A stretch of DNA of 64,000 nucleotides. Source: Nanobdellati archaeon. Lineage in GTDB: Archaea > Nanobdellota > Nanobdellia > CSSed11-243R1. Location of the stretch: the NCBI GenBank assembly GCA_027007025.1, contig JALTFL010000002.1, forward strand, positions 167,066-231,065. Reading direction: 5' to 3'. The notes beneath the pieces were generated by a model. It ran no database searches and was not told the origin of the DNA. It was given only the letters and a program-made list of their open reading frames with translations. Made by a program: the position numbers and the translations under genes. This document shows, one piece after another, positions 1,657 through 62,709 of the stretch; the first letter of the stretch is position 1, and every line of letters starts with the position of its first letter.

Positions 1657-2328
1657 TCAATGTGTGATATCATATTTTAATCTATTCTTTTCTTTCGGCA
1701 CCCAATGCTTTTTTATGCCTTCCGTAAATTCTTTTGGAACATATTTTGCTCTATAAATGTTGTAATTTTCATCGTCAATCCTTATAACCAACCCTTCTTT
1801 TTTTGACGCTCCAAAATTGGAATTTTCGATTAAATGTTCAAGGTTATCCTTTCCATTTATACTTCCTTCGTAGATTGGTTGGTTATACACAATTTTTGTA
1901 TTATTTAGTATTCTAGACACTTTTTTTTGTGACAAAAATTTTTGTTCATTAGCATCAAATATATCATATGCAATGAAATAGGATGGAAGAGATAGATAAT
2001 GTATCGAGTGTTTCCAAAATACCCATTCACCAATCAAATACAAATTTTTATCGGATATCTTTTTTATTTCTTTTTCGTGTGTTTTATACCACAAGTCGAG
2101 ACTTTTGAATTTTGTGTCATAACCTGTAACAATACTACTTCTGCTTTTAAAATGTGGGCCAGCTTCGTCCGCGAAAATCATTAAATTATTCCCATCAATT
2201 TTCTCTTGAATTATCACATTAGATTCTAAAAATAACTTTACTTTATCCTTGTCTAATATCTTATCTTCGCGTGTGCCCTTTGAGAATATATAGGGTGTTT
2301 TTGGAAATTTGAACTCTTGCCACTTCAT
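1657..2328 (-). CDS. ATP-dependent RNA/DNA ligase-like nucleotidyltransferase (Rnl2-like minimal domain)
   Basis: Motif I KxDG (QEKIDGNN), motif IV EGLVIR and motif V AKYVPK are in the correct order. The protein is 223 aa with no OB domain. Confidence 0.5.
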   Translation of the reverse strand: MKWQEFKFPKTPYIFSKGTREDKILDKDKVKLFLESNVIIQEKIDGNNLMIFADEAGPHFKSRSSIVTGYDTKFKSLDLWYKTHEKEIKKISDKNLYLIGEWVFWKHSIHYLSLPSYFIAYDIFDANEQKFLSQKKVSRILNNTKIVYNQPIYEGSINGKDNLEHLIENSNFGASKKEGLVIRIDDENYNIYRAKYVPKEFTEGIKKHWVPKEKNRLKYDITH

Positions 2329-4453: not shown

Positions 4454-4511
4454 TTTTTAATTTTTTATTTTTGGGAAACTTTATAAACGAAATAAAATAT
4501 TCAACATTTGT

Positions 4512-4688
4512 GGCCGCGTAGCTCAAGCACACCCTTCTTAAGAAGAAGCGTGTACGGAAGAAGGGGGGTGCGGCAAGGCGGTTAGAGCGGCAGCCTGTTA
4601 AAGAACCCTTTCTTAGAAAGAAAGCGTTCACGGAAAGAAGGGGTTGGCTGTAAGCTGTAGGTCGGCGGTTCGAATCCGCCCGCGGCCG
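4512..4688 (+). tRNA. tRNA-Asn(GTT), two introns
   Basis: Acceptor GGCCGCG/CGCGGCC with discriminator G. D-stem GCTC/GAGC. Anticodon stem GCAGC/GCTGT with loop CTGTTAA. Variable region AGGTC. T-arm GGCGG-TTCGAAT-CCGCC. Intron 1 is about 4529-4578 in the D-loop. Intron 2 is about 4602-4653 at 37/38. TATA CTTTATAAA at 4479-4487, about -27. Confidence 0.75.
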
Positions 4689-9516: not shown

Positions 9517-9559
9517 ACATAGTAAAGCTTTTAATATATTTATATTATTTTCTAAGTAT

Positions 9560-9812
9560 GCTCCCATAGTCTAGGAACCCTTTCTTGGGAAGAAAGCGTT
9601 CACGGAAAGAACCAAGAGAGGGATGGACATTCCGGTCAAGGATGCTGGACTCTCGCAACACCCTTTCTTAAAAGAAAGCGTGTACGGAAAGAACTTCCGT
9701 GGTGTTGGGGATATCCAGTGACCCGGGTTCAAAAGCACTTTCTCTCTTTGAAAAGAGAGAACCTGCGCTAAGAGAGAAACTTGGCGAGTGTTTGAAAGTC
9801 CCGGTGGGAGCA
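9560..9812 (+). tRNA. tRNA-Glu(CTC) (probable), three introns
   Basis: Acceptor GCTCCCA/TGGGAGC with discriminator A. D-stem GTCT/GGAT. Anticodon stem CTGGA/TCCAG with loop CTCTCG..A. T-arm CCGGG-TTCAAA..-CCCGG. Introns about 9576-9633 (D-loop), 9656-9712 (anticodon loop) and 9734-9797 (T-loop). TATA-like AT tract 9526-9545. T-tract after 9812. Confidence 0.6.
9718..9804 (+). repeat. 87-nt T-arm+T-loop-intron module, identical to 24327..24413
   Basis: GTGACCCGGGTTCAAAAGCAC...GTTTGAAAGTCCCGG reads identically in tRNA-Glu and tRNA-Gly(TCC). A diverged copy on the minus strand lies at about 38235..38292. Confidence 0.8.
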
Positions 9813-9884
9813 TTTTTTCTTTTTAGAAAATGTAAAATTTTATGAAGAATTAAATAAAAGGTATTTAATTATAATAAGAAGTAG

Positions 9885-10232
9885 GTGATGATTATCAGTG
9901 GGTTTGGATATGGTATCAAAAAGAGTACAAGCGAAGTAATTACTGGAGTTGTTGCCACCTCAGTTTATGGAGTGTTAGCAAACATGGGATTAATTCCATA
10001 TGAGATAGTTTTAGTATTTAATGTATTATCTATACTAGGGGTAATATTCCTTATAGAGAAAGCTCCATTTTGGTCGCTAACTTACTTAATTGGCTGGGTA
10101 ATTGGTATAATTTTTATGATATCTGTGGGTCTCTTGAGTTGGGTTGATATTACCATTTATATTGCTGTATCAATAGTATCTATTATGATAAAACTGGGTG
10201 TTCTTAACAGTCACTCTTCTCACTCTATATAA
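9885..10232 (+). CDS. small membrane protein
   Basis: 115 aa, 3 TM. Confidence 0.3.
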   Translation: MMIISGFGYGIKKSTSEVITGVVATSVYGVLANMGLIPYEIVLVFNVLSILGVIFLIEKAPFWSLTYLIGWVIGIIFMISVGLLSWVDITIYIAVSIVSIMIKLGVLNSHSSHSI

Positions 10233-13505: not shown

Positions 13506-13772
13506 GCGGGGGTGCCGGAGAGCCTTTCTTTCCGCCTTCTTAAAAAGAAGGCAGGTTGCCAAGAAGGAAAGAAAGAGCACGGAACGGTCAAACGGGCTGG
13601 GCTTAGGCGCATCTTTTCTTAAGAAGAAAAGCTGCACCAAAAGAAATCATTTTGGTGGATGCGTGGAAACCCAGTGGGTTAGTCCCTACGCGAGTAAGCC
13701 TTTTCTTGCGAAGAAAAGCCTTAAGGGAAAAGAAGCAGGATGGCTTCGCGATTTCGAATCTCGTCCCCCGCA
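13506..13772 (+). tRNA. tRNA-Leu(TAG), class II, three or more introns
   Basis: Acceptor GCGGGGG/CCCCCGC with discriminator A. Ser/Leu-type D-region (GCCGGAG...CGGTCAAACGGG). Anticodon stem CTGGG/CCCAG with loop CTTAGG..A. Long variable hairpin GGGTTAGTCCC. TTCGAAT T-loop. Introns about 13521-13584 (D-loop, looks nested), 13608-13668 (37/38) and 13695-13743 (T-stem/loop junction, with a clear 3-nt AGT bulge between CGCG and AAGCC/GGCTT helices). The T-stem has one mismatch. Confidence 0.6.
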
Positions 13773-13782
13773 TTTCATTATT

Positions 13783-13968
13783 ATGGCAAAGTGCAAATGG
13801 TACAATGTTTGTCCTATCGTGAGGTTTGTTGAGGAAGGCAGGCTCGATAGGAAGTGGGTTGAGAAATACTGCCTTGTTGGCAACAAAAAATGCATCCGTT
13901 ACCAAATGGAGGAAAAGGACGAGCCCCATCCTGACAATTTGCTTCCGGATGGAACTTACTTAAAGTAG
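13783..13968 (+). CDS. small Cys-rich protein (CxxxC...CxxxxxC)
   Basis: ATG directly after the tRNA. MAKCKWYNVCPIV...YCLVGNKKC. The longer track ORF 13504..13968 is an artefact that reads through the tRNA. Confidence 0.45.
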   Translation: MAKCKWYNVCPIVRFVEEGRLDRKWVEKYCLVGNKKCIRYQMEEKDEPHPDNLLPDGTYLK

Positions 13969-20494: not shown

Positions 20495-20713
20495 ATGATA
20501 ATCAAAGTAAAAGTTGTTCCAAAATCCTCAAAAGTCTCTGTTGAGCAAAGAGACGATGTTCTCCATGTCAAGTTAACCGCTCCTCCGGACAAGGGCAAGG
20601 CAAACAAGCAGTTGGTTGAAGTTTTAGCCCGACATTTCGGCGTCAAGAAGCAAATGGTTAAAATTTTAAAAGGCGAAACATCTCATAATAAAGTAATTGA
20701 AATTGAAATTTAA
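20495..20713 (+). CDS. DUF167/YggU (UPF0235) protein
   Basis: KVKVVPKSSK...VKLTAPPDKGKANKQLVEVLARHFGV is diagnostic for the family. Confidence 0.7.
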   Translation: MIIKVKVVPKSSKVSVEQRDDVLHVKLTAPPDKGKANKQLVEVLARHFGVKKQMVKILKGETSHNKVIEIEI

Positions 20714-20786
20714 TGCCTCAGCACCGCCTTCTTAGGAAGAAGGTAGGTTGCCAAGAAATGCCTCGGTGGCATGATGTTGAGGTGAT
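20714..20786 (+). other. structured tRNA-Thr 5' leader with intron-like motif and pseudo 5'-half
   Basis: GCCTCAGCA (20715-23) can pair with TGTTGAGGT (20775-83). It encloses CCTTCTTAGGAAGAAGG-TAGGTTGCCAAGAA, a homolog of the element inside the tRNA-Leu D-loop intron. It also carries a duplicate of the tRNA 5' end, GCCTCGGTGGC, at 20760-70. Confidence 0.5.
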
Positions 20787-20940
20787 GCCTCGGTGGCGCA
20801 GTCGGTAGCGCGTAAGCCTTTTCTTTCCGTAAGAAAAGCATTAAGGGAAAAGAGATGGCTGTGCAGTTGCTTGGTAATTGGCTGCGTTTGGAAGCTTTCC
20901 AATGAGCAAAAGGTCGTGGGTTCGAATCCCACCCGAGGCT
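20787..20940 (+). tRNA. tRNA-Thr(GGT), two introns
   Basis: Acceptor GCCTCGG/CCGAGGC with discriminator T. D-arm GCGC-AGTCGGTA-GCGC. Intron 1 about 20813-20865, after position 26. Anticodon stem GTTGC/GCAAA with loop TTGGTAA. Intron 2 about 20878-20905 (28 nt, 37/38). Variable region AGGTC. T-arm GTGGG-TTCGAAT-CCCAC. Confidence 0.6.
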
Positions 20941-24182: not shown

Positions 24183-24421
24183 GCGCCGTTAGTCTAGCGA
24201 CCTTTTCTCTCGAGAAAAGCTCGACCAAAAGAGAGAAGGTTGGACAATGGTTAGGATCCGAGCCTTCCACCAACCCTTTCTTTCCAAAAGAAAGCGTTGA
24301 CGGAAAGAAAGGTAGGAGGTGAGCTCGTGACCCGGGTTCAAAAGCACTTTCTCTCTTTGAAAAGAGAGAACCTGCGCTAAGAGAGAAACTTGGCGAGTGT
24401 TTGAAAGTCCCGGACGGCGCA
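24183..24421 (+). tRNA. tRNA-Gly(TCC), three introns
   Basis: Acceptor GCGCCGT/ACGGCGC with discriminator A. D GTCT-AGC..GGTTA-GGAT. Anticodon stem CGAGC/GCTCG with loop CTTCCA..A. Variable region TGAC. T-arm CCGGG-TTCAAA..-CCCGG. Introns about 24199-24248 (D-loop), 24270-24321 (37/38) and 24343-24407 (T-loop). T7 tract after 24421. Confidence 0.7.
24327..24413 (+). repeat. second copy of the 87-nt T-arm+intron module
   Basis: See 9718..9804. Confidence 0.8.
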
Positions 24422-24477
24422 TTTTTTTCTTTTTTAAAAAACCAAAATTTAAAAAGAGGGTTAGTTGTTGATTTAAT

Positions 24478-25257
24478 GTGGAAAATCTGAGGGATTTGTT
24501 CAGCGAAGTAAAGAATCTAAGAGACAAAAAAAGGAACATGCTTGATAAGATTAGAGTAATTAATAATTCTATTCATACAAAGATGGAAAAAAAGAAGGAA
24601 ATTGCCAAGATTGTCAAGAAAAACAAAGGAGAGCGAGATAGAATTGTAGAAGAAATCAAGAAATTGATGGAGAAATTAAAAAGCATACCAAAGTCAGATA
24701 TCAAAGAGGATCCTAGAAGGATAAGAAAATTGATTGAAAGACTTGACTGGAAAATCCAGACAGAAGTTATGCCATACAAGAAGGAGCAGGAGCTCACGAA
24801 GAAGATAAAGGAACTACAGGTGCAGGCGGAGGAGCTTGAAAAGAAATACATAGGCATGAGAGAAAGGGGCAAAATAGAAAACGAAATCAAGCATCTGGAA
24901 CAGGAAAAGAGACTGCTTCATTCAACAGTCATCTCATATTCAAAGCAGTGGAAGGAGATTCATTCTGAAATCGAAAGTTTGATGGAAAAGAAAAACGAGC
25001 TTTTCAAGAAGATGGATGAGATTAATTCTAAAGTAAAAGAAATTGATGCCAAGATAGATTCTGTTAAGAAGGAAATTGGCAGGGAAAAAGCCAAAAGGAT
25101 AGAAGCCGAAGTTTTGGAGAGGGAAAAACGCAGCAAGATAATCAAAGACAAAATAAATGAAAAATTGCTTGAAGTCAAGGAAAAATTCAAGCATAAGAAG
25201 AAGCTGACAAAAGATGATTTGATGATACTCCAAGCGGCAGACGAAGGAATAATCTAA
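24478..25257 (+). CDS. K/E-rich coiled-coil protein
   Basis: 259 aa of heptad-like low complexity. Confidence 0.4.
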   Translation: MENLRDLFSEVKNLRDKKRNMLDKIRVINNSIHTKMEKKKEIAKIVKKNKGERDRIVEEIKKLMEKLKSIPKSDIKEDPRRIRKLIERLDWKIQTEVMPYKKEQELTKKIKELQVQAEELEKKYIGMRERGKIENEIKHLEQEKRLLHSTVISYSKQWKEIHSEIESLMEKKNELFKKMDEINSKVKEIDAKIDSVKKEIGREKAKRIEAEVLEREKRSKIIKDKINEKLLEVKEKFKHKKKLTKDDLMILQAADEGII

Positions 25258-25333
25258 AAGCACCTTCTTAAAGAGAAGCTGCACCAAGAAAAGAAAGTTT
25301 TATCAAAGAAATTATTTATAATAAATACTAAAA
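25258..25333 (+). other. intron-like element between ORF stop and tRNA-Gly(CCC)
   Basis: CCTTCTTAAAGAGAAGCTGCACCAAGAAAAGAAAG is homologous to the anticodon-loop intron of tRNA-Leu (13611-13648). Confidence 0.5.
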
Positions 25334-25454
25334 GCGCCACTAGTCTATTGGTAGGATACGAGCTTCCCAAGACCTTTTCTTTGGGAAAGAAAAGCTCTAC
25401 CAAAAGAAAGGTTGTAAACAGCTCGGGAGCCGGGTTCGATTCCCGGGTGGCGCA
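25334..25454 (+). tRNA. tRNA-Gly(CCC), one canonical anticodon-loop intron
   Basis: Acceptor GCGCCAC/GTGGCGC with discriminator A. D GTCT-ATTGGTA-GGAT. Anticodon stem CGAGC/GCTCG with loop TTCCCAA. Intron about 25371-25420 (50 nt, 37/38). Variable region GGAG. T-arm CCGGG-TTCGATT-CCCGG. Confidence 0.8.
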
Positions 25455-51860: not shown

Positions 51861-52142
51861 TCAAATCCTCTTTTTTGGAATTGATTTTTTGATTCTTTTT
51901 TCGGGGTTTCCGCTTAAGAGCGTACCTTCGATTTTGACAATTCCTTTGTCGGTTTTTATCTTCAGGGTGCATTCCCTTTTTATTATTTTTTTTTCACCTT
52001 TCTTTGTTTTTATTGTGAGCATGTTTTTTGTTTCGTCGACTATTTTTCCTTTCAAGCCGACGAGACTTTTGTTTTTGCTTTCTTCAATCTCGGCTTCAAG
52101 CCCAATCAACTCGTGTTTTATGAGGTTTTTTGGAGTTATCAT
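51861..52142 (-). CDS. rnp1: RNase P protein subunit Rpp29 (Pop4)
   Basis: Conserved position between SUI1 and S17. Sm-like LIGLEAEIEESKNKSLVGLKGKIVDETKNMLTI. Confidence 0.7.
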   Translation of the reverse strand: MITPKNLIKHELIGLEAEIEESKNKSLVGLKGKIVDETKNMLTIKTKKGEKKIIKRECTLKIKTDKGIVKIEGTLLSGNPEKRIKKSIPKKRI

Positions 52143-60797: not shown

Positions 60798-62261
60798 TTA
60801 TCCTTTGACAACACCAAGGGGCTTCAGTCTTGCGACAAGATTTCCTATTCCTGCCTCTTGACTGACTCTTGCGACTTCGTCGATGTCTTTGTAGGCGCCC
60901 GGCGCTTCCTCCGCAACCCCACGCTTTGACGCTGATTTTATTATAATGCCTCTTTCTCCAAGCTGCTTCTTAATGATATCTGCTTGATACTGTCGCATTG
61001 CGGCGTGCCTGCTCATCAACCTTCCAGCCCCGTGCGCAGTTGAGCCGAACGTCTTTTCCATTGATGTTGAGCTTCCAGCCAGTACGTAGCTTGCGGTTCC
61101 CATACTTCCGGGAATAAGCACAGGTTGCCCAACATCCCTATAATCTATTGGTATCTCAGGGCGCCCTGGACCAAATGCCCGGGTTGCGCCCTTCCTGTGA
61201 ACATAAACTTTTCTCAATTTTCCGTTAATCTTATGCTCTTCGACTTTTGCGAGGTTGTGAGCTACGTCATATACGAGTTCCATGCCGAGGGATTCCCAGT
61301 CTTTTTTGAAAACTTCTTCGAATGCCTGCCTACTCCAGTGCATAATCATCTGTCTGTTTGTCCACGCGAAGTTTGCCGCCGCGCTCATTGCCTTGAAATA
61401 TTTTTCAGCGAGCTCGCTTCCTGACGGCGCGTAAATCAATTCCCTGTCGGGTAAAGTTTTAATTATGTCCGGAAATGTTTTTTCCATCTCGCGGAGGTAG
61501 TCTGAACATACTTGGTGTCCGAATCCGCGGCTACCCGTGTGAATCATCAACGTTGCTTGTCCTTCCTCAAGCCCGAATGCCTTGGCTGCTTTTTTGTCAA
61601 ATATTTTTTCGACATATTGAACTTCAAGGAAATGGTTTCCTGCTCCGAGGCTTCCTAGTTGTGGCATACCTCTCTTTTTGGCTTCCTTGCTGGTGTATCT
61701 CGGGTCCGCGATTTTCAATCTTCCATTTTCTTCTATGTGTTTCAAGTCCCTTTCGGCACCGTATTCATTTTCAACAGCCCACTCAACACCATATTTCAAG
61801 ACTTTGTTAAACTCATCGACGTTTTTTATTCTAGTGAGTCCCTTGCTGCCGAGCCCGCTTGGAACATTCTTAAACAGGGCGTTTAGAATTGGTTTCATAT
61901 TATCTTCGGCATCTTTTTTTGTTAGGTTTGTTCTTATCAATCTAACTCCACAATTTATATCATAACCAATTCCGCCCGGCGATATCCCACCGTTTTCATA
62001 GTCGAGTGCCGCGACTCCACCTATTGGGAATCCATATCCCTCGTGTCCGTCTGGAAGAATTATGGAATACTTGTAAATGCCCGGCAGTGTCGCTACCCCC
62101 GCGCCCTGCGTTAGTGTCCTGTCTTGTTTCATTTTGTTCAACAATTTTTCAGACGCAAAAACTCTTCCTGGAACGTTCATATTTGGCACGGTTCCAACTG
62201 GGATTTCCCATTCGACGTCGCTTATTTTCTTCAATTCCAAATTATTGATTTCTTTCATCAT
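60798..62261 (-). CDS. rtcB: RNA-splicing ligase RtcB (tRNA 3'-phosphate/5'-OH ligase)
   Basis: Metal-binding GYDINCG, NHF, HTGSRGFGHQV, HNLA motifs. Start at ATGATG after the GAGGTGG SD. The track extends to TTG 62285. Confidence 0.9.
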   Translation of the reverse strand: MMKEINNLELKKISDVEWEIPVGTVPNMNVPGRVFASEKLLNKMKQDRTLTQGAGVATLPGIYKYSIILPDGHEGYGFPIGGVAALDYENGGISPGGIGYDINCGVRLIRTNLTKKDAEDNMKPILNALFKNVPSGLGSKGLTRIKNVDEFNKVLKYGVEWAVENEYGAERDLKHIEENGRLKIADPRYTSKEAKKRGMPQLGSLGAGNHFLEVQYVEKIFDKKAAKAFGLEEGQATLMIHTGSRGFGHQVCSDYLREMEKTFPDIIKTLPDRELIYAPSGSELAEKYFKAMSAAANFAWTNRQMIMHWSRQAFEEVFKKDWESLGMELVYDVAHNLAKVEEHKINGKLRKVYVHRKGATRAFGPGRPEIPIDYRDVGQPVLIPGSMGTASYVLAGSSTSMEKTFGSTAHGAGRLMSRHAAMRQYQADIIKKQLGERGIIIKSASKRGVAEEAPGAYKDIDEVARVSQEAGIGNLVARLKPLGVVKG

Positions 62262-62274
62262 TACCACCTCAGAA

Positions 62275-62709
62275 TCATATATCAATTAACACCTTTATTA
62301 TGTATTTATTATTTTCTTTTTTTATTTCCATATAATGATATGTTATTGCCTTTACATGAGTGCCTTCCTCGTGCTTTTCAGGGTTGTACTTTTCGCCCCC
62401 CGCCTCTGCTCTAAGATACCATTTTCCTTCTTTTTCATCGATTTTTTTAACTTTGACATTATGGAACACCAACCCTTCGGCGTCCTGCAGTATTAGAAAT
62501 TGCGAGAGGAAATCAAACAAGAGAGATTCCTTATCCTCTGACGAAATATGGATGGTTTTTTTCACGTTTTTGCCCACATTGTCCGAAACCACAATCGCAT
62601 AGCCTAATCCCACAGCCGCGTTTTCAAATGCTTCTTCTAGTGTATCTCCCCACGATTCAATATACATGTCCGCCGTGTGCTCCAAAAACCTGAATTTTTT
62701 TTTGCTCAT
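62275..62709 (-). CDS. archease (RtcB activator)
   Basis: FRFLEHTADMYIESWG N-terminal archease signature. Directly upstream of rtcB. Confidence 0.8.
   Translation of the reverse strand: MSKKKFRFLEHTADMYIESWGDTLEEAFENAAVGLGYAIVVSDNVGKNVKKTIHISSEDKESLLFDFLSQFLILQDAEGLVFHNVKVKKIDEKEGKWYLRAEAGGEKYNPEKHEEGTHVKAITYHYMEIKKENNKYIIKVLIDI

Follow-up and report, generated by a model that had tools for sequence, protein, structure and literature searches.

Families of transposed tRNA introns have been described in Thermoproteales, with their spread placed, by inference, at the DNA level and its mechanism given as unknown (Fujishima et al. 2010, summarized in PMC4090602). The mechanism by which archaeal tRNA introns in general spread between genes is likewise called unknown in reviews (PMC4090602). 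[quoted passage not shown] In Caldiarchaeum subterraneum, a 5' tRNA-Thr fragment is found together with a 1.8-kb insert encoding a recombinase (PMC3293823), and DPANN genomes contain many disrupted tRNA genes as well as EndA variants (PMC5829648).

The DNA analyzed here is a 64-kb stretch (the window) from a DPANN archaeon (Nanoarchaeota/Woesearchaeota-like) in which two tRNA genes, tRNA-Thr(GGU) and tRNA-Gly(CCC), are preceded by short elements that, judged by sequence kinship, are real members of the repeat family of the tRNA introns. We consider it reasonably probable that both are solo, non-spliceable copies of this family in fast-changing DNA upstream of tRNA genes, that the structured Thr leader is removed by RNase P and that the Gly copy is promoter-adjacent.

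tRNA genes and the intron repeat family of the window

The window has a GC content of ~37-40% and an archaeal gene content including Nre, a ribosomal-protein operon with SUI1, RadA, aRF1, RtcB and archease. By its Nre protein, the closest genomes are metagenome bins of DPANN archaea that bear the labels Nanoarchaeota, Woesearchaeota or Parvarchaeota. Reading combined with a T-arm/intron-motif search identified seven tRNA genes, six on the plus strand and one on the minus strand, all of which contain one to four introns:

About 4512-4688, plus strand: tRNA-Asn (T-arm/intron-motif search)
About 9560-9815, plus strand: tRNA (T-arm/intron-motif search)
About 13506-13783, plus strand: tRNA-Leu (T-arm/intron-motif search)
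20787..20940, plus strand: tRNA-Thr(GGU) (Rfam tRNA 46 bits, BHB scan, ARAGORN on the spliced sequence)
20814-20866 and 20877-20904, plus strand: the two tRNA-Thr introns, at positions 27/28 and 37/38, respectively (BHB scan)
24183-24422, plus strand: tRNA-Gly-TCC (ARAGORN after intron removal)
25334..25454, plus strand: tRNA-Gly(CCC) with a canonical family intron at 25371-25420 (reading; ARAGORN on the spliced sequence)
About 38400-38200, minus strand: tRNA (T-arm/intron-motif search)

Intron-rich tRNA genes of this kind represent an annotation blind spot, as they escape ARAGORN when it is run on the raw window (0/7 found) and for the most part Rfam (1/7 recovered). Once the predicted BHB introns are removed, ARAGORN calls Thr(GGT), Gly(CCC) and Gly(TCC). 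Nearly all tRNA introns of the window belong to one hairpin-repeat family in which a pyrimidine arm leads through a loop to a purine arm, followed by a short GC-rich mini-hairpin and another run of purines. A 65-nt intron in the T-loop is present in identical copies in two tRNAs and as a variant in a third. Across the tRNA genes read in the window and in relatives, a TATA-like box of 8 nt precedes the tRNA, from which it is separated by 22-24 nt. At most tRNA genes here the TATA box plus 22 nt lands exactly on +1, representing a leaderless design, and other tRNA genes have short leaders of 2-7 nt.

The tRNA-Thr leader, its intron-family module and the Thr locus in relatives

The stop codon of a yggU-like gene (TAA, 20711-13) and the start of tRNA-Thr at 20787 enclose a leader with the following layout:

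20495..20713, plus strand: yggU-like gene (DUF167; Pfam PF02594, E = 1e-23; orthologues in relatives 76-85% identical)
20713..20719, plus strand: stub a, ATGCCTC, a partial copy of tRNA-Thr positions -2 to +5 (sequence reading)
20715..20723, plus strand: 5' strand of the leader helix, GCCTCAGCA (pairing by eye with 20775-83)
20724..20758, plus strand: intron-family module of 35 nt, CCGCCTTCTT-AGG-AAGAAGGT-AGGTTGCC-AAGAAA (core invariant in relatives L015 and L102 and in the window's Leu intron)
20758..20770, plus strand: stub b, ATGCCTCGGTGGC, a 13-nt copy of tRNA-Thr positions -2 to +11 (direct repeat of 20785-97)
20775..20783, plus strand: anti-stub strand, TGTTGAGGT, the complement of the stub and of the tRNA 5' end (pairing, predicted fold)

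The initial annotation had described a 9-bp helix and a duplicated tRNA 5' end in this leader, and both are present. The helix formed by GCCTCAGCA and TGTTGAGGT comprises 9 bp including two G.U pairs, and 8/9 of its pairs appear in the RNAfold minimum-energy fold (20715-22 with 20776-83). The 73-nt leader has a z-score of -3.2 relative to shuffles, and strong structure is a feature of the leaders tested in the window and in relatives (z = -3.2 to -5.8). Two copies of GCCTCGGTGGC are present, one at 20760-70 and one at 20787-97, the latter forming the tRNA 5' end; the preceding AT makes this a 13-nt direct repeat, and stub a adds a third, partial copy. The background of direct repeats of at least 13 nt at a random position in these sequences is about 0.1%. 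The module is placed inside the helix formed by the duplicated tRNA 5' end (the stub) and its complement (the anti-stub). Because tRNA-Thr adjoins yggU and the spacer between the two contains no AT-rich promoter in the window, a leader-bearing or co-transcribed tRNA-Thr precursor is plausible. Two other readings of the leader were dropped. An 8-bp pairing of leader UUGCCAAG with the Thr anticodon loop is equaled by 15% of shuffled leaders, and a C/D-box or other known RNA family returned no Rfam match even at permissive thresholds (AUGAUGU is present, with no D box).

The kinship of the Thr element with tRNA introns, also proposed in the initial annotation, is borne out by a subfamily match. 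The Thr core AAGAAGGTAGGTTGCCAAGAA (20737-57) differs from the tRNA-Leu intron at 13545 by 1 mismatch over 21 nt, and no other match to it is found in the 64 kb even when 4 mismatches are allowed. The homology claim rests on this match because the HMM of the general intron family gives only E = 1.1 for the Thr core. The corresponding module copy is located within the tRNA-Leu gene:

13532..13566, plus strand: module copy in the first intron of tRNA-Leu (sequence match to the Thr core)

This copy replaces the interior of the intron, and the Leu introns of relatives L001 and L002 are without the module, which would therefore have been copied into the Leu intron in the lineage of the window. All flanks of the module differ between the window, L015, L102 and the Leu intron, but its core, CCGCCTT...AAGAAGG(T/C)AGGTTGCCAAGAA, does not vary among the four, and the element is thus conserved in related genomes. 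In L102 the module stem contains one additional, compensating T-A pair. Identity of the 30-nt core in three species, with yggU proteins ~82-83% identical to that of the window, suggests purifying selection for some function. The same identity counts against an explanation by solo copies, which names no function for the module.

Neither the ends nor the flanks of the module resemble those of a transposon. The terminal sequences CCGCCTTCTT and CCAAGAAA are not inverted repeats, ends of the MITE or transposon type are absent, and there is no target duplication of fixed length, the flanking repeats varying from 7 to 15 nt. No match to the module was obtained in a viral contig collection, and the single match of the tRNA-Thr 5' end in viral contigs, located in a GC-rich contig, was judged to be due to chance. 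Target duplications were also considered at true intron boundaries, where likeness is seen only if the central-helix sequence is palindromic (GCGC, CTAG) and is not general.

Relatives of the Thr locus were gathered via the yggU protein, with identities of 76-85% for the closest of them and 63% for L002; among the matches listed, metagenome matches to the yggU alignment are at most 61% identical and none is informative for the Thr locus. Contigs of the same species have an identical Thr leader. In L001, the yggU 3' end is followed by AT and then by tRNA-Thr without any leader, the called ORF runs into the tRNA, and the tRNA begins where the window has stub a after yggU. L013 possesses only a 13-14-nt stub and anti-stub hairpin followed by GAT and tRNA-Thr, L016 a tandem pair of GCCTC...GAGGC hairpins and L017 three tandem units of ~22 nt upstream of the tRNA; the spacers preceding tRNA-Thr in these three relatives are promoterless and 34-67 nt long. 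In L102, the 35-nt module is present in two tandem copies beginning within the last yggU codons. The tRNA-Thr of L015 lies apart from yggU, yet the same module precedes it, with a 43-nt two-hairpin insertion in the module loop. The module is missing in five relatives (L001, L002, L013, L016 and L017).

Promoter spacing suggests where the tRNA originally began. In L002, TTTAAATG plus 22 nt reaches the tRNA +1, and in L015 the homologous promoter, TTTAAATG plus 22 nt, reaches the G of a 5-nt stub GCCTC, which is the predicted transcription start. This stub is followed by the module, ATGCCTC and the complete tRNA-Thr, the same layout as in the window. Because identical spacing hits the stub in L015 and the tRNA +1 in L002, the stub likely marks the old +1. 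The tRNA intron patterns group the window with L013, L016 with L001, and L017 with L015 and L002. These groupings cross the distribution of the module (window, L015 and L102), and several gains or losses of the module are therefore needed.

Direct repeats of the tRNA 5' end measure 7 and 13 nt in the window, 7 nt in L015, 14 nt in L013, 10 nt in L016, 9 nt in L101 and 14 nt in L007. The last is a nanohaloarchaeal tRNA-Gly in which the 14-nt repeat of the 5' end surrounds 39 nt with no recognized family element. These recurring arrangements of stub, insert and tRNA in relatives point to duplication or insertion at the DNA level. In close genomes, one tRNA 5' boundary can be seen both empty and filled, with visible target duplications, and a single module is found as leader sequence and in the interior of an intron, all of which provides material for understanding the insertion mechanism.

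The stubs and the GCCTC...GAGGC inverted repeats could be no more than DNA scars, as what remains of attachment or recombination sites used by elements that insert at tRNA 5' ends, or as traces of snap-back or templated break repair, without any function in RNA. Such an origin would account for the tRNA 5'-end direct repeats of 7-14 nt that flank short inserts at several independent loci, for the promoter-box duplication flanking an element in L100 and for the very high turnover among close relatives, and a 5' tRNA-Thr fragment together with an insertion is documented for the integrating element in Caldiarchaeum (PMC3293823). However, no integrase or transposase is encoded nearby, the inserts are merely 14-83 nt long, the repeats have variable lengths (7 to 14 nt) and the module is both absent from the viral contig collection and invariant in its core between species. 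In addition, the helix mismatches are G.U and not A.C, and the L102 stem gains a compensating T-A pair, which fits a constraint at the RNA level. We therefore regard scars without RNA function as unlikely.

A more general possibility, which we put forward tentatively, is that the intron family is or was a mobile or copy-paste element at the DNA level that landed in or beside tRNA genes with short target duplications. This reading draws on the module found in the Thr leaders of several species having been copied into the Leu intron here, and on the recurrence of stub, element and tRNA at Thr, at Gly(CCC) and, without a recognized family element, in the nanohaloarchaeon. If it is true, the leader and promoter copies would be snapshots of archaeal tRNA intron gain and exchange, and the stub/anti-stub hairpin would represent a compensatory device making insertions harmless.

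Processing of the Thr leader

The initial annotation had offered BHB-like release of the tRNA by the splicing endonuclease and a permuted or split tRNA ancestry as possible roles of the leader element, neither of which is upheld by what was found in the window. From true introns we took a cleavage rule in which a 4-bp central helix is followed on either strand by a 3-nt bulge, with the cut between bulge nucleotides 2 and 3; a BHB scanner based on this rule recovers the true introns. All stub-to-tRNA joins and all partners for an exact cut at +1 were tested, both manually and with a script, in the window and five relatives, and no BHB with a useful cut was found in any Thr-leader register, nor was any conserved. 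The best register in the window, with cuts after 20715 and 20787, has 3/4 central helix pairs, no outer helix pairs and an inner helix of 7, and all other Thr-leader registers have at most 2/4 central pairs. Nothing comparable is found in L013, with a central helix of 0/4, or in L015, which lacks an anti-stub.

A relaxed version of endonuclease processing would have EndA recognize the helix, the 3-nt GAU linker and the acceptor stem as a bulge-helix-bulge or bulge-helix-loop, thereby either freeing the tRNA 5' end or excising the insert from a yggU-tRNA co-transcript. Helix, three unpaired nucleotides and acceptor stem do recur in the window and L013, and more loosely in L016 (4-nt linker), and the 72-nt insert would be excised precisely by the register that cuts after 20715 and 20787. 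Moreover, DPANN EndAs with an L3 loop have been linked to disrupted tRNA genes and broad specificity (PMC5829648), and real introns of the window already have 3/4 central helices. The 3/4 central pairs of this register are, however, weak (A-U or G.U) and lack an outer helix, and they face competition from a more stable continuous helix of 9-10 bp. Cleavage of the GAU bulge under the validated rule would leave an extra U at -1, the motif is without equivalent in L013 and L015, and an RNase P subunit gene is present. Processing by EndA is consequently very unlikely in our estimate.

We find it hard to credit that the insert is a true acceptor-stem intron, with transcription starting at G20715 and a 5-nt stub exon 1 joined to G6 onward by removal of 72 nt. 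The stub occupies the place of the tRNA +1 of empty-site relatives at the same promoter-box spacing, and the interior of the insert comes from the intron family, both as expected for such an intron, but all six possible registers fail the BHB test (6/6) and the tRNA further downstream, being complete, needs no splicing. Such an intron would also require the central-helix sequence and its partner to be direct copies and not complements, and a 5-nt exon would be poorly anchored.

With regard to split or permuted ancestry, tRNA-Thr is complete and colinear after removal of its two internal introns, and the upstream insert does not interrupt it. The search for a matching Thr half elsewhere in the 64-kb window found no second copy of either half at up to 5 mismatches, and the complement of the leader occurs there only once, as an 11-nt match at chance level. 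No integrase, transposase or recombinase is found near the tRNA loci, where neighboring ORFs are housekeeping genes or have no recombinase match. The Thr leader element is thus outside the class of spliced introns, which have a BHB at their boundaries and interrupt the tRNA, and outside the class of split tRNAs, whose tRNA body is incomplete or permuted, as judged within the window. Of the hallmarks of an integrative element, it has the flanking direct repeat of the tRNA end and lacks an adjacent integrase or recombinase.

The window also contains a gene relevant to leader removal:

51861..52142, minus strand: gene for RNase P/MRP subunit p29 in the ribosomal-protein operon (Pfam PF01868, 82 bits, E = 3e-23)

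This is the only RNase P subunit gene seen in the 64-kb window, which also encodes RtcB and archease and in which no RNase P RNA was found by Rfam. Every archaeal genome examined, those of DPANN among them, is reported to encode proteins of the RNase P RNP (PMC6380272); a lack of RNase P has been reported for Nanoarchaeum equitans (PMC10100707). With p29 encoded in the window, normal removal of leaders by RNase P is plausible, and the 2-7-nt leaders together with the promoterless 34-67-nt spacers imply some 5'-processing activity, for which RNase P is probably the simplest candidate. Long leaders are unusual for this genome, in which most tRNA genes look leaderless like those of the RNase P-free Nanoarchaeum equitans, and this, like the single subunit gene and the RNase P RNA not found in the 64 kb, counts against the RNase P model.

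The effect of the leader on tRNA folding was assessed by partition-function folding, comparing the probability of acceptor-stem formation between native and altered leaders. With native leaders, this probability is 0.99 for the window, 0.65 for L013 and 0.95 for L016. Scrambling the anti-stub lowers it to 0.45, 0.01 and 0.10, respectively, with the stub capturing the acceptor 3' strand, and for the window stub b plus spacer alone it is 0.06. This folding suggests a decoy model, in which the stub became a hazard through duplication and its complementary strand has been retained to mask it. More generally, and as an idea open to testing, leaders that contain a second copy of the tRNA 5' end may endanger correct folding unless this copy is sequestered. 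The stub case of L007 folds badly (P = 0.00), and together with the native value of only 0.65 for L013 this counts against the decoy model.

According to the explanation by solo copies, a lineage-specific hairpin repeat of ~35-45 nt that forms most of the tRNA introns would also have given rise to single copies just upstream of tRNA genes. At the Thr locus, duplication or insertion of DNA at the tRNA 5' boundary would have left behind the stubs and one module. Transcription, driven by a promoter-like box in the yggU 3' end or yielding a yggU-tRNA co-transcript, would turn the region into a structured 5' leader. Based on the folding model, pairing of the anti-stub with the stub would keep the latter from rivaling the true 5' end for the acceptor 3' strand, and the module would form an independent hairpin within the leader loop. 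The whole leader would then be removed at +1 by RNase P and not by the splicing endonuclease.

The Gly element and comparison with known systems

The second element is located downstream of a coiled-coil ORF and is separated from its tRNA by a putative promoter:

24478..25257, plus strand: coiled-coil ORF (DUF7121; PF23435 precomputed for homologues)
25260..25297, plus strand: solo intron-family element whose purine tail forms a BRE-like stretch (nhmmer E = 0.006; homologous element at the same place in L100)
25298..25333, plus strand: promoter-like spacer consisting of TTTTATCA (25298-25305) and AT-rich sequence (box conservation, TATA spacing rule)

Its kinship with tRNA introns, likewise claimed in the initial annotation, is supported by E = 0.006 for 25261-25293 using an HMM built from 16 introns only and by AAGCTGCACCAA, which the element has in common with a Leu intron. 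The reported order of ORF stop, element and tRNA holds at both Thr and Gly, but at Gly the element does not adjoin the tRNA, as ~36 nt of AT-rich, promoter-like sequence (25298-25333) lie between it and tRNA-Gly(CCC) at 25334. The TTTTATCA box and the spacing rule from other tRNA genes predict a transcription start 4-7 nt before tRNA-Gly. Directly after the Gly element follows AAAGTTTTATCAAAGAA, which is kept in L101 and L100 despite the neighboring DUF7121 protein being only ~50% identical. The Gly element is thus upstream of a conserved BRE/TATA-like box and probably outside the tRNA leader, of which it had initially been taken to be a part.

In L100, a Gly element at the same promoter-proximal place forms part of an array composed of box, element, box, spacer, diverged stub GTGCCACTAGT, element, box, spacer and tRNA. 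L101 contains a box, a 9-nt stub GCGCCACTA and a 31-nt family element followed by the tRNA, and L002 has a family copy with no nearby tRNA at an ORF end (9955-9990). Structure in the Gly region overall is not significant (z = -1.7).

The remaining proposal of the initial annotation, that integrated intron copies serve as terminator or processing signals, is possible, mainly for Gly. In its broader form, the solo copies would be cis-elements, acting as terminators or 3'-stabilizing hairpins for yggU or DUF7121 mRNA or as elements upstream of tRNA promoters. Several placements agree with this: the Gly hairpin is immediately followed by TTTT (25298-25301), a perfect hairpin of 11 bp occupies the corresponding place in L101, copies adjoin or overlap ORF stops in the window, L102 and L002, the L100 element precedes a BRE/TATA box twice, and the module core is kept across species. 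In L015, however, the Thr module is found away from yggU and after the tRNA promoter, and hence travels with the tRNA and not with the ORF; the five relatives without the module and the insignificant structure of the Gly region also argue against such a role, and we consider it improbable. The explanation by solo copies would place the Gly copy, located between the ORF stop and the BRE/TATA of the tRNA, in promoter-adjacent DNA, where it may possibly provide a terminator-like hairpin for the ORF.

Overall, the finding does not establish a new route of tRNA 5'-end maturation, and the elements probably represent stray copies of a repeat and not a new processing route. The Thr leader resembles ordinary leaders processed by RNase P in that a spacer, likely transcribed, is present upstream of +1, the tRNA body is intact and an RNase P subunit gene is encoded. 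Unlike ordinary leaders, it combines duplicates of the tRNA 5' end with a complementary strand and a hairpin of the intron family, and most other tRNAs here look leaderless. Intron-type sequence in a tRNA leader and partial tRNA pieces are features in common with split and permuted tRNAs, whose body is incomplete or permuted; here, in contrast, the tRNA is complete and colinear, and no partner or BHB is found in the window. As in Caldiarchaeum, intron content differs among close genomes and the sequences point to a DNA-level event at the tRNA 5' end, but the inserts are only 14-83 nt long, no recombinase is nearby and what was inserted is itself intron-family sequence.

The closest likeness in intron content is to Thermoproteales, where a single family of short introns is likewise found in many unrelated tRNA genes of the same genome, at canonical as well as non-canonical positions, and the module described here has moved, namely into the Leu intron, as have members of those families. 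The present system differs in belonging to a DPANN lineage and in having copies outside tRNA exons as well, in a 5' leader, upstream of promoters and at ORF ends. In comparison with the selected literature considered here, the apparently new features are family copies without a BHB outside the exons of intact tRNA genes, very small inserts between repeats of either the tRNA 5' end or promoter boxes, and a single module shared between a leader and an intron, together with a stub/anti-stub leader hairpin.

Interrupted tRNA genes and their introns

Seven tRNA genes, each interrupted by one to four introns, are located in the window:

4512-4688, plus strand, tRNA-Asn gene
9560-9815, plus strand, tRNA gene
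13506-13783, plus strand, tRNA-Leu gene
20787-20940, plus strand, tRNA-Thr(GGU) gene
24183-24422, plus strand, tRNA-Gly(TCC) gene
25334-25454, plus strand, tRNA-Gly(CCC) gene
about 38400-38200, minus strand, tRNA gene

ARAGORN detected none of the seven genes in the window and the Rfam tRNA model only one, and most tRNAs of this genome would therefore escape standard annotation. An intron of 65 nt is found at the same T-loop position, and with identical sequence, in the genes starting at about 9560 and 24183, while the minus-strand gene carries a variant with a different 3' end:

about 9734-9798, plus strand, T-loop intron
about 24343-24407, plus strand, T-loop intron
about 38287-38223, minus strand, variant T-loop intron

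This pattern points to recent copying or gene conversion among tRNA genes. Most tRNA introns are filled by a family of hairpin repeats consisting of a pyrimidine arm, a loop, a purine arm, a GC-rich mini-hairpin and a second purine run. The two purine runs mirror each other in the majority of copies (e.g. window 24199-24245, 24343-24407 and 25371-25420), and all three runs covary from copy to copy (e.g. AGAGAG variants), indicating that the pyrimidine arm is able to pair with either purine run. The same pattern constitutes a polypurine mirror repeat, a type of sequence able to form a triple helix in DNA.

Family elements and tRNA 5' end duplicates in relatives

Upstream of tRNA-Gly(CCC) in one relative (L100 1410-1600), the promoter box AAAGTTTTATCAAAG occurs three times in a tandem array that also holds two family elements and an 11-nt stub, a diverged partial duplicate of the tRNA 5' end. 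At a nanohaloarchaeal tRNA-Gly(TCC) (L007 16172-16296), the 5' end is directly repeated over 14 nt (GTATTTGCGGCGAT), bracketing a 39-nt insert that bears a hairpin; in folding models the stub takes the acceptor 3' strand.

The called yggU ORF of L001 (13016-13060) has no stop ahead of the tRNA and extends about 17 nt into tRNA-Thr, so that the gene end overlaps the tRNA start. The loop of the Thr-leader module, an intron-family piece that in the window lies between yggU and tRNA-Thr, carries a 43-nt insertion in L015 (2750-2792) that folds into a pair of hairpins, each with a perfect 9-bp stem; large loop insertions are thus tolerated by the module stem. Family elements overlap protein-gene stop codons in L002 (9955-9990) and L102 (780-854) because the hairpin loop provides TAA or TAG. 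The L102 element is tandemly duplicated and its second copy runs into the contig end, suggesting that family repeats may break assemblies.

RNA-processing genes and promoter spacing

The window also encodes RNA-processing proteins:

1657-2328, minus strand, separate RNA_ligase (PF09414) gene
51861-52142, minus strand, RNase P subunit p29 gene, in a ribosomal-protein operon between SUI1 and S17
60798-62285, minus strand, tRNA-splicing ligase RtcB gene
62275-62709, minus strand, gene for the RtcB cofactor archease

The RtcB and archease genes are neighbours with overlapping ends. Promoter spacing was compared across window upstream regions 4480-4511, 9526-9559 and 38429-38400, L002 13423-13452, L015 2704-2733, L003 and L004. 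In most tRNA genes of this set, exactly 22 nt separate an 8-nt TATA-like box from tRNA position +1; leaders of 2-7 nt are predicted for the other tRNA genes. In L001, the box CATAATAA is located 22 nt ahead of the tRNA-Thr +1. Such a layout is the leaderless tRNA design described for Nanoarchaeum equitans; unlike the RNase P-free N. equitans, however, the window encodes an RNase P subunit.
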